Counted from the first letter of the stretch, positions 19,436-34,900 are shown. The stretch is 64,000 nucleotides of DNA from Aplysia californica (GCF_000002075.1 NW_004797431.1:378810-442809); one strand, 5' to 3'. Notes: generated by a model from the sequence alone, not told the origin. Numbers and translations are program-made.

Positions 19436-20086
19436 TCAGTCTGCACCAGTTTCGGACAATAAGGAAACGCACTCGAGTATGTCAGCTTCCTCCACACACA
19501 ACTTGTCAGCAGGCTGTGGTGACTGTGGAGACAATGCAGGCAAGCATTCCTCCGAGCTCGAGCTCCAGGATTGGACCTCTTGATCGCCGCTTTTGGCTCC
19601 ACGGAATGGCCTGTTGAGAAGATACTGACCTGCGAGGCCATACGAAACGTGGATGACCGGTGTCCACGTAACACGATACGTGGAGGCCTCTACAGTGTGA
19701 CTTGCACAAGTTTCGAGGCAGCTTTCCGACTGTCCAGAGTCCGAATCGCTCTCATAGTTGGAGGGTAGCGACAGGTGTAGGTCTTCGTAGAGGTGGCCTG
19801 ACGGTAGGTGCATTGCCGGTGTTCTTGGGGAGCATTGTCTACTGAAAATAGAATACTCACTTGGTGAGTCAGACAGTTCTGCACCTGTATGGTTTACCTC
19901 GTGGTCCTCCAATCTGGCTTGATCACCACGAGGGCATTCGGCAGGGTTTTCGTTCAGCTGGCTTGAGCACCTGCTATCCAGAGAGAGATGGAGGTCTTGA
20001 GAGTCTCCTGGGTACAGCTGGCCGCTGCTTTCTTCCCTGTAACAGGATGAGAAACAAGACAAGAACAGTTTACGTATACGCTTCAT
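19436..20086 (-). CDS. Orphan 216-aa Ser/acidic-rich protein, copy 1
   Basis: ATG..TGA 651 bp, open and indel-free in all three copies; upstream GTAAGT..TTTTCTAAG intron; repeated DLHLSL with synonymous codons; no family recognised. Confidence 0.6.
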   Translation of the reverse strand: MKRIRKLFLSCFSSCYREESSGQLYPGDSQDLHLSLDSRCSSQLNENPAECPRGDQARLEDHEVNHTGAELSDSPSEYSIFSRQCSPRTPAMHLPSGHLYEDLHLSLPSNYESDSDSGQSESCLETCASHTVEASTYRVTWTPVIHVSYGLAGQYLLNRPFRGAKSGDQEVQSWSSSSEECLPALSPQSPQPADKLCVEEADILECVSLLSETGAD

Positions 20087-20117
20087 CGCTGGGCTTAAAA
20101 CTAACCACCAGTTGTAC

Positions 20118-20204
20118 CTTAGAAAAGAAGAGACCTACGATTGAGCCTTTAAGAGACTTTATTCCCCAATTCCTCACCGTCTTTCTCCTTCTCTCTTCAC
20201 TTAC
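20118..20204 (-). other. Putative 87-nt 5'UTR intron of the orphan gene (copies 24855-24941, 34617-34680)
   Basis: GTAAGT donor, TCTCTTCTTTTCTAAG acceptor 31 nt before ATG; splice sites intact in all copies. Confidence 0.55.
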
Positions 20205-30011: not shown

Positions 30012-31496
30012 CCCAACCACTCCTTTGCAGCCAGTCCCCCAGTGTTTTCACTACTGCCATCTCTATGTGGAGACCACCAAATATCACCACTATATGGACT
30101 TCACCATAACTCCCTGGCCACTTCCACTGTATCTGCTTGGCCAAAGAAAACAGTGGTTGATCCAAGGTGACAACTGGTGTCTCTCCAGGGTTCAGGTGTT
30201 CTGCAGCTTTCTTCACAACGTCCATTGATCATTGCCACAGTGTGGGCACTTGCCAGGAAGAGTGGAAGCAGTGACGTGGGGCAGATGACTCTACCCTCTG
30301 GTGGCTGTCGCCTGGCATGAAATGCAGCCCAAGATGTGTTTTCATTGTCCAATGTACCAGTGTTGTCTCCCAGGGCGTGTTTTGCATTGCCTAACCAATG
30401 GTATTCTTCATCAGTCTACTGTTTGAAGTCTCCTCTGGTCAATGGCGCAACTCCAGCAGCTGGGACAGGCGACGTCTTGATGCTGCTAGTGACAGGGGGT
30501 ACATCAGTATAATAGTGCGACGAAGGGGCGACAGTCTTGGACCGTGCATCCCCAGATTCTCCAGCAACGAATATGCTCCAATTTACTCCTTCACCAGTGT
30601 AAGAAGGATGTTGTACGAGGGAGATAGCGGCACCTTGGAAGGAGTCTTTTGATATTGATGTACTAGGATTGTGATCTATGTTATCTACAGCGGCAATTGT
30701 GATCTCTTCGCCACGCACTTTTGGAGGTCAGACCACTTGTTCTCTGTAAAATTGTTGGCAGACATGGTTGCCCATCTCTGCTGGGAGCTGGAGCCCTCTA
30801 TCATAAGAGATACTCAGGCCGAGGTGTGACAGTCTGTCGATCAATTCCTTCTTGTGTGTATGAGCATGCAACATCATTCCAATGTATGTTGGAAGTGGGG
30901 TCTCCTGTGCAACACTGTGCCTGACACAAGTTGATGATGTGGTGCCACGCGTTCGCTTGTTTTACGCTGTTGAACTTCAGTGTCTAGGCTGCGGTGATTG
31001 CTGCAGGGTTACTGTCTGCCATCTGGTCCTTGATGCTGGGTCTCTCTAGGATCATGCTGACTAAGGCAAGCAGCAGCGGTTGCAACAGATTCTTCTTGAC
31101 ATCCTCCAGGGCACACTGTGAAGGGTTTGGCTTCCCCAAACAGGTGACGGCGACAAGATAACGACGAATGCAGATCGAGAAGCAGCCATGCTATGTAAAG
31201 CAGTCATTTTGAAATCCAATATGGCGACCCATTAGTACAAATATGCAATGCAGATTGTTACCACTGGCTTGCTTGACCCAAATTACATACATTTAGACAC
31301 CAAAAGGAAGTCAATAGCAGCATTAGACCCAGAGATAATCGCAAATGTAGATTTCAAATGGCGGCCATTTTGAAATCCAATATGGTGGCCATTAAGAGAG
31401 AAATCCGAGGGGCAAAATATCTGAAAATGATTTCAATATGTTAATGTACATTTGTGCCAGGTTTGGTGCTTGTATCACAAAATGCACAATAGGTTT
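30012..31496 (-). mobile_element. Academ-type DNA transposon remnant (frameshifted transposase plus terminal region)
   Basis: Motifs AAVDNIDHNPS, SWAAFHA, LDQPLFSLAKQIQWKWP, FGGLHIEMA, DWLQRSGW across several frames; subterminal repeats ATTTTGAAATCCAATATGG; superfamily call from recalled motifs. Confidence 0.7.
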
Positions 31497-31915
31497 NNNN
31501 NNNNNNNNNNNNNNNNNNNNNNNNNNNNNNNNNNNNNNNNNNNNNNNNNNNNNNNNNNNNNNNNNNNNNNNNNNNNNNNNNNNNNNNNNNNNNNNNNNNN
31601 NNNNNNNNNNNNNNNNNNNNNNNNNNNNNNNNNNNNNNNNNNNNNNNNNNNNNNNNNNNNNNNNNNNNNNNNNNNNNNNNNNNNNNNNNNNNNNNNNNNN
31701 NNNNNNNNNNNNNNNNNNNNNNNNNNNNNNNNNNNNNNNNNNNNNNNNNNNNNNNNNNNNNNNNNNNNNNNNNNNNNNNNNNNNNNNNNNNNNNNNNNNN
31801 NNNNNNNNNNNNNNNNNNNNNNNNNNNNNNNNNNNNNNNNNNNNNNNNNNNNNNNNNNNNNNNNNNNNNNNNNNNNNNNNNNNNNNNNNNNNNNNNNNNN
31901 NNNNNNNNNNNNNNN

Positions 31916-34900
31916 ATCGGTGTAATAGTAAATTTAAAACAAATTGTTGTGCCATTTCCTTATATAACAAATACATTTTTGTAACAGGTTTACGGCATTG
32001 CAAAACAATTAGCTTATATAAGTTTTTTTTATGATAAGTAAGCATTGGAAGATCACATAGAAGTTATAAAGGGCCAGGCCATCCCCATCTCCCATAGGAA
32101 ACAACCAAGTGGGCGAGGAACCAGAAAAACTCCACAAAAAGAAAAGAAAAATTTAATCAAATAAAAGCTTAAGAACACGATGGCTTATTAAATGTTAGTT
32201 TGAGACGATGCCTGCTGAACTGTCAACTCCCCCCCCCCCCCAATCCCCTTATCTCCCTCTTCCCCCCTTTCCAATTCCTTTTGAAGGAGTGGGCAGAAGT
32301 TGAAAAAATGTTGGATTACTTTTATTTCACAAGCTACTAGTTACGTATTTCTTTTTATTATGTATGCGTAGTACTGTGTTAGCCACTAAGTTCAAACCAG
32401 AAAGTAGGCTATGGCTAGACATATTAGCGTTTTCTTAGCCGTCCTTCTGATTTGAACAGAGTGTTACACCCTTGTGCCACGGTGAGGCCCAGTACTTCCG
32501 GCTTTCACAAGGGAGGGAGTGGGGAGGGACCGTTTTGAGTTGTGGAAGACAAAATTAAAAGTAGTTTTATCAATGAGAAAAAGAAATATCATGTATTGCT
32601 CTGAAGTTTAGTTCCAGGCCTGATACCTAATGAAACCGTTGAGGTAATAAGAAACCAAAACTAGGCTATCAGATGAAAATAAAAACACTTTGTAAAGATT
32701 GAGAAGAAAATACTAAAGGTCACTGTACCTGTTTATATTGTCAGCTCAATAAACGTAATTCTACATTCACAAGCATCTGCCCAAAAAGGATAGATTTTTT
32801 CACACAATCATCTCTTGAAGTGACCACCACAAAAGTCCAATTTTACATTTTTTGTTAAATTTACCAACATTTGTCAAAAAGAAATATTTGTATACAAATC
32901 AAGTAAAAGATAGTTGTTTATCATCAGAAATTGCATTGGTAGGTATAGAGTTGGATAGCAATAAATCTTATAACCAGAAGAGTAAGAATAATCACACCAT
33001 CATGAGCCTAAACAAAACAATTAAAATGAAACCTCACCTGGTCCACATAAAGTACATCATTGTTTGGATCTACAAATTGTTGAAACATTGCGTTTGGAGC
33101 GAGGTTGCCACAAAGCTCAAGAGAATGTGAGACTTTAAATAGAATTTGTCAACGAGCACAGTGACCCAAACAGAATTCATCTAAATGGAAAAAAATGCGA
33201 AATGACAGACACATGCAAATGCAAAGAAGATGTTATATTCAGAACTGTGAGGAAGAAATAGCAAAAAATCAATTTTAAATACCGCGGAGCCAAGATTAAA
33301 GAAAATGAGAAAACAATTCCAGAGAATTTAAATTGCATCATAAAAATACAAAAGGATAATTTTCATCTGGAAAGCACGTTGCAATGACAGAAGAAAAGAA
33401 TACTAAGCAGTATTGCATTCAAACCCCAATATTAAGAAGCAACGAACAGCAAGTGACAAGAAGACTTTTCAAACTATACTGAAGACAGAAACTAACGAAT
33501 GAGTATGAAAGGAAATAGGAAATAGAAACACCAACACTCCTTAAGAAGCATAATGAGAATGAACCTAAACTATTTTGAATGCATCAAATAGAATGATTCA
33601 TCATAGAAAGATATTCTAAAAGCAAAGGTAAAAAGCAAAAGAGGAAGGGGTTGGCTTAGCTGAAGATGGGAGTTGTGCTCAGAAACATGGTATGGAATTA
33701 AAACAATTCAGGCATGGACAATAACAAAATTCAGAATGTTTGATTGCAGAAAGGTCCAAGAAGCAGCGTCCATCAACTCAAAAAGCTAAACAGGAGAAGA
33801 CAAAAAAAGACAGGGTGGGTGTGAAGATGGGGACACAAGGGAGGGAAGATAACAGGGAGGGGGATCGGGTAGGGGGGTAGTTGTTTCTAAGCTAGGGGTA
33901 AAACACATTCACCGTTACAGCTTCGTTGAAATGGTCAGTCTGCACCAGTTTCGGACAATAAGGAAACGCACTCGAGTATGTCAGCTTCCTCCACGCACAA
34001 CTTGTCAGCAGGCTGTGGTGGCTGTGGAGACAATGCAGGCAAGCATTCCTCCGACCTCGAGCTCCAGGATTGGGCCTCTTGATTGCCGCTTCTGGCTCCA
34101 CGGAATTGCCTGTTGAGAAGATACTGACCTGCGAGGCCATACGAAACGTGGATGACCGGTGTCCACGTAACACGATACGTGGAGGCCTCTACAGTGTGAC
34201 TTGCACAAGTTTCGAGGCAGCTTTCCGGCTGTCCAGAGTCCGACTCGCTCTCCCAGTTGGTGGGTAGCGACAGGTGTAGGTCTTCGTCCGGGTGGCCTGA
34301 CGGTAGGTGCATTGCCGGTGTTCTTGGGGAACATTGTCTACTGAAAATAGAATACTCACTTGGTGAGTCAGACAGTTCTGCACCTGTATGGTTTACCTCG
34401 TGGTCCTCCAATCTGGCTTGATCACCACGAGAGCATTCGGCAGGGTTTTCGTTCAGCTGGCTTGAGCAGCTGCTATCCAGGGAGAGGTGGAGATCTTGAG
34501 AGTCTCCTGGGTACAGCTGTCTGCTGCTTTCTTCCGTGCAACAGGAGGAGAAACAAGACGAGAACAGTTTACGGATACGCTTCATCGCTGGGCTTAAAAC
34601 TAACCACCAGTTGTACCTTAGAAAAGAAGAGACCTACGATTGAGCCTTTGAGAGACTTTATTCCCCAATTCCTCACTTACCAATACAAAGAGAACAAGTG
34701 GCGCAGACACTCAAACAAAAGCGCCGTAAAACTCTAACAAAAAACAAACAAACAAACAATCAAACAAACAAACAAACAAGCAAACAAGAAAAAACAACAA
34801 CAACTAAACAACAAAATAACCAAAAACCAAAACACTCAAATACGCTTATGTCTAAATTAAACGCACTACAAAAAGCACACAATCAAAACGGATGTTGAAA

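Follow-up and report, generated by a model that had tools for sequence, protein, structure and literature searches.

Three open reading frames (ORFs) of 651 bp, each free of stops and indels and encoding an orphan protein of 216 aa, were located on the minus strand of the window (the whole 64-kb stretch of sea hare DNA analysed here) at 19436..20086 (copy 1), 24173..24823 (copy 2) and 33935..34585 (copy 3), and were followed up by a family copy search and by selection and stop-simulation tests. They lie within larger duplicated units on the same strand: 17431..21908, in which homology to dispersed copies runs from ~20887 to ~16900; 22155..29589, which includes an upstream block common to copy 3; and 31916..39181 (copy 3). 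The 3′ edges of the unit cluster near 17760–17800 and at a (GATA)n microsatellite (17338..17413, minus strand) that is also found in many dispersed copies, yet they vary and share flanks. A MITE-like insertion of ~490 bp whose ends are inverted precedes copy 1 on its upstream side (20893..21384) and recurs from ~35534 onwards. A preliminary description of this DNA had presented the gene as tandem-triplicated, which is accurate for the window and understates the family, as the genome holds 93 matches on 23 contigs. Of these, 28 are full-length and stop-free; they are spread over 12 contigs, and a single array (G000:C1072) accounts for 14. An apparent ‘open frame’ of 2011 aa at G000:C473 proved to be a run of N and was rejected. 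We propose that the family spreads by duplication at the DNA level, with birth and death of copies.

The raised GC content reported earlier was recovered (0.52 in the ORF, 0.35 in the flanks), while the indel-rich flanks were found upstream of the trio (2–5 events per ~790 nt) but not downstream (0 in 270 nt). Comparison of copies 1 and 3 gave 18 amino acid differences and ~8.5 synonymous changes, in line with the earlier count (about 7 synonymous), but the near-neutral or diversifying evolution read from it is contradicted by the family-wide omega of ~0.6. The same family-wide test rejected omega = 1 in two frames, that of the ORF (dlnL about −9) and the antisense frame that mirrors its codons, and did not reject it in shifted frames or in the 3′UTR. 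Only 2 stops occur in 20 copies, compared with 16.8 ± 3.8 in neutral simulation (0/500 runs as low), although most of the aligned copies were taken from the top of a protein search, which biases them towards open frames. The ORF indel rate is 2.9 per 100 nt against 9–12, and ORF indels are more often in frame (10/19 versus 28/143, p = 0.003). These comparisons indicate that the 216-aa frame is under purifying selection of a frame-specific kind. A stronger form of the near-neutral reading, in which a young repeat happens to contain an open frame that evolves neutrally, could draw on an ORF nucleotide identity no higher than that of the flanks, on the lack of RNA reads on the ORF, and on the trio alone, which would be stop-free under neutrality with p ~0.28 and so shows little by itself. 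This reading is already disfavoured, and we regard it as extremely improbable given the frame-specific omega below 1, the stop deficit, the in-frame bias of indels and a 62% identical relative of the protein.

That relative, P0001, is the only one retrieved from 5.8 billion proteins and 1.8 billion representatives, and it keeps the start, end and motifs of the 216-aa protein; an atlas search with P0001 itself gave a top score of 0.79, which is chance level. The 216-aa protein had no Pfam match above cut-off and no match in the PDB, and searches of longer proteins and representative sequences led to no known family. The composition (17% Ser, pI 4.7) agrees with the earlier suggestion of a disordered protein, as does an AlphaFold model that shows no fold (pLDDT 46) and is otherwise uninformative. 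The family is thus supported as one of real, lineage-restricted, acidic and probably disordered proteins. The N-terminus is basic, with Cys11 in 12/12 and Cys15 in 11/12 aligned proteins, and this Cys-rich segment may hold the likely disordered, acidic protein at a membrane, where palmitoylation of the cysteines, as first suggested, would be a candidate means of anchoring.

Upstream of the ORFs, candidate 5′UTR introns lie on the minus strand at 20118..20204 (87 nt), 24855..24941 (copy 2, from sequence) and 34617..34680 (copy 3, 64 nt, shortened by loss of sequence between GTGA repeats). The GT...AG sites (20204..20118) and the 23-nt deletion in copy 3 are present as first described, but the survival of the donor is automatic, because the deletion sits between two GTGA repeats and re-creates it. 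Donor GT occurs in 18/20 aligned copies reaching the site, which is approximately chance level at 91% identity, and a second acceptor 24 nt further downstream fits equally well. For this candidate intron, neither reads nor contigs showed splicing and no copy lacking the intron was seen, and the transcription start region had no read coverage. A joint of 20097–20170 in runs X1, X4 and X15 was rejected as a splice and assigned to a genomic deletion variant, because it ends in AA..AA and matches copies that are 24 nt shorter. Further upstream, a palindromic E-box-like site (20590..20599; also 25287–25296 and 35063–35072) is a candidate promoter element.

Predicted ribozymes downstream of the ORFs

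Each ORF is followed by a putative U-rich 3′UTR (18060..19435 in copy 1, minus strand) without a conserved AATAAA, a conserved C-rich leader (18019..18059, minus strand) that is also present in sister families, and a predicted ribozyme like that of hepatitis delta virus (HDV), on the minus strand at 17874..18018 (copy 1; descriptor, pairing and model), 22608..22751 (copy 2) and 32370..32513 (copy 3; both by descriptor, model and sequence). In copy 1, +1 is a C at 18018 and the equivalent of the catalytic C lies at 17886. The helices P1, P1.1, P2, P3 and a long P4 form a nested double pseudoknot in HDV order. The descriptor, composed after the candidate had been seen, matched three times in the 64 kb, each 1418–1422 nt behind an ORF stop, and once in 10 shuffled windows. 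Mean identity among copies is 95.5% for the ribozyme and 95.7% for the leader, compared with ~89% for the UTR. This module, the main feature of the locus, was absent from the preliminary description.

Pairing is preserved in 98.5% of cells of the ribozyme alignment, against 28–43% in slid controls, and four double-sided pair changes (one in P1, one in P2 and two in P4; none in slid controls) were recorded, all running from AT to GC and separating only three sequence types, so that they represent few independent events. In alignment A2, all 15 rows retain the J4/2 catalytic C with N-A-A after it, G25 of L3 is likewise kept in 15/15, and U20 of L3 in 14/15. J1/2 is also conserved and reads as a tandem GGAAGT. 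Each 216-aa copy is predicted to carry this HDV-like double-pseudoknot RNA ~1,420 nt behind its stop. Rfam returned no match at gathering score and no ribozyme family even at E ≤ 10, and a literature search found no report of this element, although an earlier description may exist.

The sea hare RNA has in common with the genomic HDV ribozyme and HDV-like ribozymes (CPEB3, R2, L1Tc, RTE; PMC1874588, PMC6765202, PMC3774820) a 7-bp P1, 3-bp P3, 2-bp P1.1, P2 and P4, U20/G25 in L3, the J4/2 catalytic C with AA, and a cut predicted 5′ of P1. It differs in its long P4, in a P1.1 of C-G plus A-U, and in its position behind host protein-coding genes and before a polyadenylation signal rather than at a retroelement 5′ end or in an intron. 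It differs also at the cleavage site, where a G1-U37 wobble (or a purine) is absent and the pair is C-G in 13/15 rows, U-G in one and unpaired in one; PMC1874588 describes G1-U37 as needed for full activity. A search for the P3-L3-P1′ pattern in phages gave 14 matches (contigs L112–L125), and 13/14 complete the fold with C1, using five different P2 helices, which indicates from sequence that the C1-G37 variant is natural. The phage contigs have the same P1′/P3/L3 core and C1, but this core was the search pattern and so says nothing on common origin. Related phage systems are the minimal HDV-like and theta ribozymes (PMC10879173); the phage matches obtained here are short and placed before a small ORF, with no tRNA within 1 kb at the eight loci scanned. 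Metagenome contigs gave no match to the 24-nt core.

Sharing of the predicted ribozyme among unrelated gene families

Genome-wide, 77 core matches were obtained with sequence patterns, a scan that may miss more diverged types; 32 lie behind a 216-aa ORF and 23 behind genes of a 115-aa family, while contigs of another family, the third (acidic, multi-exon), carry 13, and 9 were unassigned. None of the 77 is on the strand opposite to a gene of the 216-aa or 115-aa family. The 115-aa family has 38 loci; in 18 of them, chosen by protein alone, the full fold was found 13 times and the 5′ half twice, in sense. For this sister protein of 115 aa, Pfam gave no match, and the database contained no relative among proteins of 63–202 aa. 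The three ribozyme-bearing families are mutually unrelated and multicopy, with the ribozyme in sense behind each, and its position behind genes holds over 56–100% protein identity. A comparable case is Leishmania SIDER2 (PMC4035085, PMC5509151), in which an HDV-like fold likewise occurs in the 3′UTRs of unrelated genes and is linked to endonucleolytic mRNA decay, the decay cut mapping to the second signature and not to the active first one. SIDERs are retroposon remnants with a common downstream body, whereas the sea hare families, in an animal host, share the ribozyme and its upstream leader; the A and H ribozyme types have no downstream body in common with other types.

RNA traces and the proposed fate of the mRNA

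In the window, AATAAA follows the ribozyme on the minus strand at 17858..17863 (copy 1, 10 nt behind it, with a second at 17830), 22592..22597 (copy 2) and 32354..32359 (copy 3). Most A-type copies have AATAAA or ATTAAA within ~50 nt behind the ribozyme and none conserved ahead of it, the two AATAAA inside the putative 3′UTR of copy 1 being found in 2/21 and 2/22 copies; several copies (L039, L042, L044, L082 and L083) lack the signal behind the ribozyme. The acidic family, like the C139 array, has AATAAA 0.9–1.3 kb ahead of the ribozyme, which there may consequently lie beyond the mRNA.

The sequencing-run search listed no RNA run as a match; runs X1, X4 and X15 behave like DNA, and the poly(A) run X21 is the sole RNA run. 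In X21, 597 reads of the G-type sister form start exactly at 18018, the predicted cut, the largest such pile among those listed. This single sample, of unknown tissue, has no reads on the 216-aa ORF or the A-type ribozyme, and the in vivo traces all come from the G-type sister form rather than from the window copies. The abundant RNA at 17943–18018 was also considered as rDNA spacer, which was rejected.

We consider it somewhat better supported than not that this is a multicopy orphan family under purifying selection in which a predicted HDV-like ribozyme, ~1.4 kb behind the stop and followed by a likely poly(A) signal, cuts the mRNA body from its tail. Pol II would transcribe the U-rich 3′ region and then the ribozyme without stopping, polyadenylation would occur at the AATAAA behind it, and the C1-G37 ribozyme, probably slow, would then cleave at +1. 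The downstream product would be a stable 5′-OH poly(A)+ fragment of ~0.2–0.3 kb, and the upstream product a tail-less mRNA body whose new 3′ end is the conserved C-rich leader with a 2′,3′-cyclic phosphate. Its most likely effect would be that of a built-in timer limiting the output of highly amplified genes.

Alternatively, a poly(A) site of non-canonical or lineage-specific type could close the gene further upstream. The ribozyme would then act beyond the gene, where it might terminate transcription or block read-through between tandem copies, or might form the head of a distinct short RNA driven by a promoter of its own. The conserved J1/2 and the C-rich leader resemble ETS- and Sp/KLF-type sites. 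A dual promoter/ribozyme has a precedent in Pr77 of L1Tc (PMC3383444), X21 is rich in poly(A)+ RNA whose 5′ end is +1, and two of the three families have AATAAA 0.9–1.3 kb ahead of the ribozyme. We hold this arrangement to be unlikely, if still of appreciable weight, as the window family has no conserved AATAAA across the 1.4 kb and the ribozyme is kept behind genes across the whole range of protein identity, while a promoter alone leaves the pairing of P1, P2 and P4 and a start exactly at P1 unexplained. The +1 ends could also arise by stalling of a 5′–3′ exonuclease at a real pseudoknot that is barely catalytic owing to C1-G37. The reported G1-U37 requirement (PMC1874588) and the proposal, in PMC11331408, that HDV folds act as 5′–3′ exonuclease barriers whatever their activity would agree with this, but stalling would need no catalytic C, and the catalytic C, U20/G25, P1.1 and the J4/2 AA are all kept, also in the phage C1 versions, making it improbable.

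A second trace, consistent with the favoured reading of cleavage at +1, is a retrocopy (L126) that starts at +1 and ends just past the equivalent of the polyadenylation signal, followed by an A-tail, with a 13/15 target-site duplication (null 0.2%). Only one leaderless copy with an intact +1 was found in the genome, alongside a fragment (L084) starting at +3, against 77 core matches, so that the ribozyme-headed RNA is not a spreading SINE; the SINE/LINE pattern of many +1-headed copies with unrelated upstream DNA and a shared body was not seen. The scarcity of such copies also counts against seeing in the entire unit a mobile element of non-autonomous type (Penelope- or retrozyme-like) that carries the ORF, with the ribozyme serving mobilisation. 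As in Penelope-like elements and animal retrozymes (PMC8557442; bioRxiv 10.64898/2026.07.22.740005), the ribozyme lies in sense behind an ORF, copies are both tandem and dispersed (on 23 contigs) and microsatellites flank the edges; loci selected by ribozyme lose variable 5′ parts, and 5′ truncation, tandems and microsatellite bias are described for Penelope-like elements (PMC8557442). However, those elements use hammerheads in pseudo-LTRs together with an RT-EN ORF or short repeats, and no pseudo-LTR, RT ORF, RT-GIY-YIG ORF or hammerhead was seen in the sea hare unit, in which the upstream flank of the ORF has no homology to the downstream flank. Loci picked by ribozyme necessarily retain the 3′ part, and many dispersed copies share extra upstream kilobases, as segmental duplications do. 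We therefore judge a mobile element to be very improbable.

Most of the self-cleaving ribozymes known in animals come from retroelements, introns and the Clec2 3′UTR. The Clec2 hammerhead (PMC6765202) likewise places a self-cleaving RNA between stop and polyadenylation signal, where cleavage would remove the tail; it belongs to another ribozyme class and its effect has been tested, whereas the sea hare module is predicted, continuous and common to three unrelated amplified orphan families. More tentatively, and as a possibility we rate below an even chance, some amplified protein-coding genes of sea hares may form a class in which a portable HDV ribozyme module of non-canonical (C1-G37) type, having moved from gene to unrelated gene, completes the mRNA. 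The working mRNAs would then be poly(A)-minus, with a C-rich cyclic-phosphate end, and poly(A) RNA-seq and annotation would largely miss them. If true, this would represent host use of a ribozyme in mRNA 3′-end control, with an HDV-like module behind three unrelated multicopy families, two in vivo traces of cutting and evidence that ribozyme modules are exchanged between genes. The C1-G37 form, present in phages too, departs from a rule on which descriptor searches may rely, and such searches may thus have overlooked a class of HDV-like ribozymes.

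The 216-aa orphan gene family

The three minus-strand ORFs (copies 1–3; 19436–20086, 24173–24823 and 33935–34585) were confirmed, each 651 bp long and free of stops and indels, with 18 residue differences and ~8.5 synonymous changes between copies 1 and 3. The tandem triplication of the preliminary description holds for the window but not as the whole extent, since these copies belong to a larger family with 93 protein matches on 23 contigs of the 927-Mb host genome, and 28 full-length stop-free copies across 12 contigs. An array on contig C1072 contains 14 open copies, while contig C506 (533000–551000; loci L045–L046) carries a mostly broken tandem array of ~17 1-kb units, equivalent to window positions 20510–19480, which retain the candidate intron and have no ribozyme between them. 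A frameshifted RTE-type LINE, with reverse transcriptase and endonuclease pieces, lies immediately upstream of the gene on C1072 and C854 (loci L034–L036 and L038) and was amplified together with it in the array. Three sequencing runs (X1, X4 and X15) behave as DNA, because intron, ORF and flanks are evenly covered, and their majority letters are of the C1072 type at 36/36 places compared (40 shown). Single contigs with depths ~10 to 100x above rare variants hint at more copies than were assembled, although this depth is not a copy number.

Three stop-free copies alone have p ~0.28 under neutrality, and the window trio by itself is little proof of a gene; the proof is supplied by the family. 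Among 13 open, distinct copies (locus L044 was excluded for compensating frameshifts), omega is ~0.6 and omega = 1 is rejected in the ORF frame (dlnL ~ −9), contrary to the near-neutral or diversifying evolution proposed previously. Control frames (two shifted frames, 2/3 antisense frames and four 3′UTR framings) fit omega 1 to 1.5, the codon-mirrored antisense frame being the only control that echoes the ORF signal. Across 20 copies, broken ones included and most taken from among the best protein matches, 2 in-frame stops were observed versus 16.8 simulated, a count omitting one further stop (contig C309) in a gapped region. Indels are rarer in the ORF (2.9 versus 9–12 per 100 nt elsewhere) and more commonly in frame (10/19 versus 28/143, p = 0.003). 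The earlier view of a real, probably disordered orphan protein stands: it is acidic and Ser-rich, and no family, structure or confident structural model was found. The only relative outside the genome, P0001 (ENA source, 3 members; 62–65% to the fetched copies), retains the start, end and central motif.

The candidate 5′UTR intron (20118–20204 in copy 1) is plausible but unproven. Its splice sites had been noted to survive a deletion in copy 3; the donor is indeed present, which follows from the deletion having fallen between GTGA repeats. The donor is conserved no better than background, a second acceptor fits equally, and no spliced or intronless form of the gene was seen. X21, the sole raw poly(A) RNA run examined, gave zero reads over the ORF.

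Elsewhere in the window, an intronless 557-aa Ser/Thr kinase ORF (42199–43872, minus strand; Pfam Pkinase), which we take to be MNK-like, itself occurs in multiple copies (18 matches at E ≤ 1e-60, of which several contain stops), with a partial duplicate (69%) at 41583–42538 and no ribozyme match downstream. A degenerate non-LTR reverse-transcriptase remnant (14400–15700, plus strand) was recognised by eye, a 104-aa piece of it having no Pfam match, and a 797-bp duplicate of 99.6% identity (12525–13321 and 13422–14218), flanking a gap of 100 N, may reflect overlap in the assembly.

A predicted HDV-like ribozyme downstream of the ORFs

Nearly all of the 2196 X21 reads placed on the window match 17943–18018 only, and 2161 continue into sequence other than the window's, which occurs 13 times in the genome within another repeated gene sharing just ~190 nt with the window at 82%. 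The window stretch under these reads is predicted to fold as an HDV-type nested double pseudoknot (17874–18018, minus strand; predicted cut start, +1, at the C at 18018). A descriptor composed after the candidate had been seen matches exactly three times in the 64-kb window, 1418–1422 nt downstream of the three stops, and once in 10 shuffles. In an alignment of three sequence types, pairing holds in 98.5% of cells and four pairs are altered on both sides (P1, P2 and P4 twice), representing few independent events, with none in slid controls. Identity is 95.5% in the ribozyme and 95.7% in its 41-nt C-rich leader versus 90% in the ORF and 89% in the UTR. The catalytic C, U20, G25, P1.1 and J4/2 match their HDV counterparts, whereas C1–G37 replaces the G1–U37 pair that HDV requires for full activity according to the accessible part of PMC1874588. 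The predicted ribozyme was undetected by an Rfam search, and no statement on C at +1 was found in the available portions of PMC10879173 and PMC3774820.

A P3-L3-P1′ pattern, which leaves P2 unspecified, gave 14 phage matches. As 13 of the 14 complete the fold with C at +1, a catalytic C and P2 helices of five kinds, 12 of them with 7–8 contiguous pairs, this form is natural, which carries no inference on origin. These short ribozymes (loci L112–L120 and L122–L125, IMG/VR contigs), mostly just upstream of a 105–138-aa ORF and lacking a tRNA in the 8 loci scanned, may constitute an undescribed subfamily in phages.

Traces of in vivo cutting come from the G-type sister form only. The biggest of the listed piles of X21 read starts (597 reads; a further 161 table rows lie beyond those compared) is at 18018, the predicted +1, and other piles (213, 116 and 58) are at G-rich positions inside the ribozyme; loose read ends are presumably template-switch adapter. 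A solo copy on contig C2 (L126:7284–7618) starts exactly at +1 with unrelated DNA upstream, ends directly past the AATAAA equivalent with an A-rich tail, and has a 13/15 flanking repeat, such repeats occurring at 0.2% of 2000 random sites when low-complexity best matches are scored as misses. No other leaderless copy in the genome keeps its start intact (a C617 fragment begins at +3), and these features are those expected of a poly(A)+ 3′ cleavage product that had been retroposed. The retrocopy apparently lies within an intron of what we take, from a recognised exon, to be a GalNAc-transferase-like gene.

A module shared among gene families and the mRNA's 3′ end

A 22-nt core has 77 exact genome matches (reversed control, 0): 32 are sense and within 7 kb downstream of a 216-aa ORF, 23 lie downstream of an unrelated 115-aa orphan family, 13 are on contigs bearing a third orphan gene, which is acidic and multi-exon (an assignment made per contig, with 11 such stretches fetched), and 9 fall outside these assignments. 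None of the 77 is opposite in strand to a gene of the 216-aa or 115-aa family. In a forward test on 18 of the 38 genome-wide loci of the 115-aa family, fetched through protein match, 13 have the full fold in sense 2.4–3.5 kb downstream, 2 retain its 5′ half and the other 3 lack it (one with an N gap there), and controls gave 1 antisense match and 0 in 54 shuffles. Both G- and H-type ribozymes occur within this family, and the module has therefore been swapped inside it. Homology of the window type to the other types covers the ribozyme and 15–47 nt of leader without the downstream body, the reverse of the sharing in a ribozyme-headed retroelement as described in the accessible text of PMC6765202. 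The predicted HDV-like ribozyme is a module common to several gene families.

The 115-aa ORF (L082:5647–5994, from a C139 array with ~8.3-kb spacing) starts in a strong Kozak context, and its second residue is a Gly, possibly myristoylated. A multicopy three-exon orphan gene (L070:4400–7272, contig C1075; also contigs C1, C1577, C1906 and C2083), whose exon starts are duplicated and whose C-terminus is very acidic, has its ribozyme 1.3 kb past the stop. At L063 and L082, the G-type leader begins ~35 nt upstream of +1 with a pyrimidine tract and CAG like those of a strong splice acceptor, where the window type has CAA, and in these G-type families the ribozyme may open a terminal exon.

No conserved AATAAA was found between stop and ribozyme in the window family, the two copy-1 sites being present in 2/21 and 2/22 copies, and most copies have an AATAAA or ATTAAA no more than ~50 nt past the ribozyme. 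Because of this signal arrangement, we lean towards an mRNA that would extend through the predicted ribozyme, be polyadenylated beyond it and then lose its poly(A) tail by cutting, probably slowly given the C at +1, although X21 contains no RNA whatsoever from the 216-aa family. The Clec2 hammerhead likewise lies between stop and poly(A) signal, and Leishmania SIDER2 elements are likewise in 3′UTRs (accessible parts of PMC6765202, PMC4035085 and PMC5509151). The main rival, a terminator or separate promoter/ribozyme unit past the mRNA end (compare the accessible part of PMC3383444), would suit the acidic family as well as the C139 array, in which AATAAA lies upstream of the ribozyme, but we consider it unlikely. 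An exonuclease roadblock (PMC11331408) or a Penelope-like carrier (PMC8557442; bioRxiv 10.64898/2026.07.22.740005), is less likely still. A literature search with partial coverage of key surveys found no prior report of this ribozyme element, and PMC5786205, in its accessible part, mentions the species for LINE and SINE sequences only. Judged from sequence, the multicopy orphan gene family of A. californica is real, and it has a predicted, novel form of HDV-like ribozyme at a new type of location.
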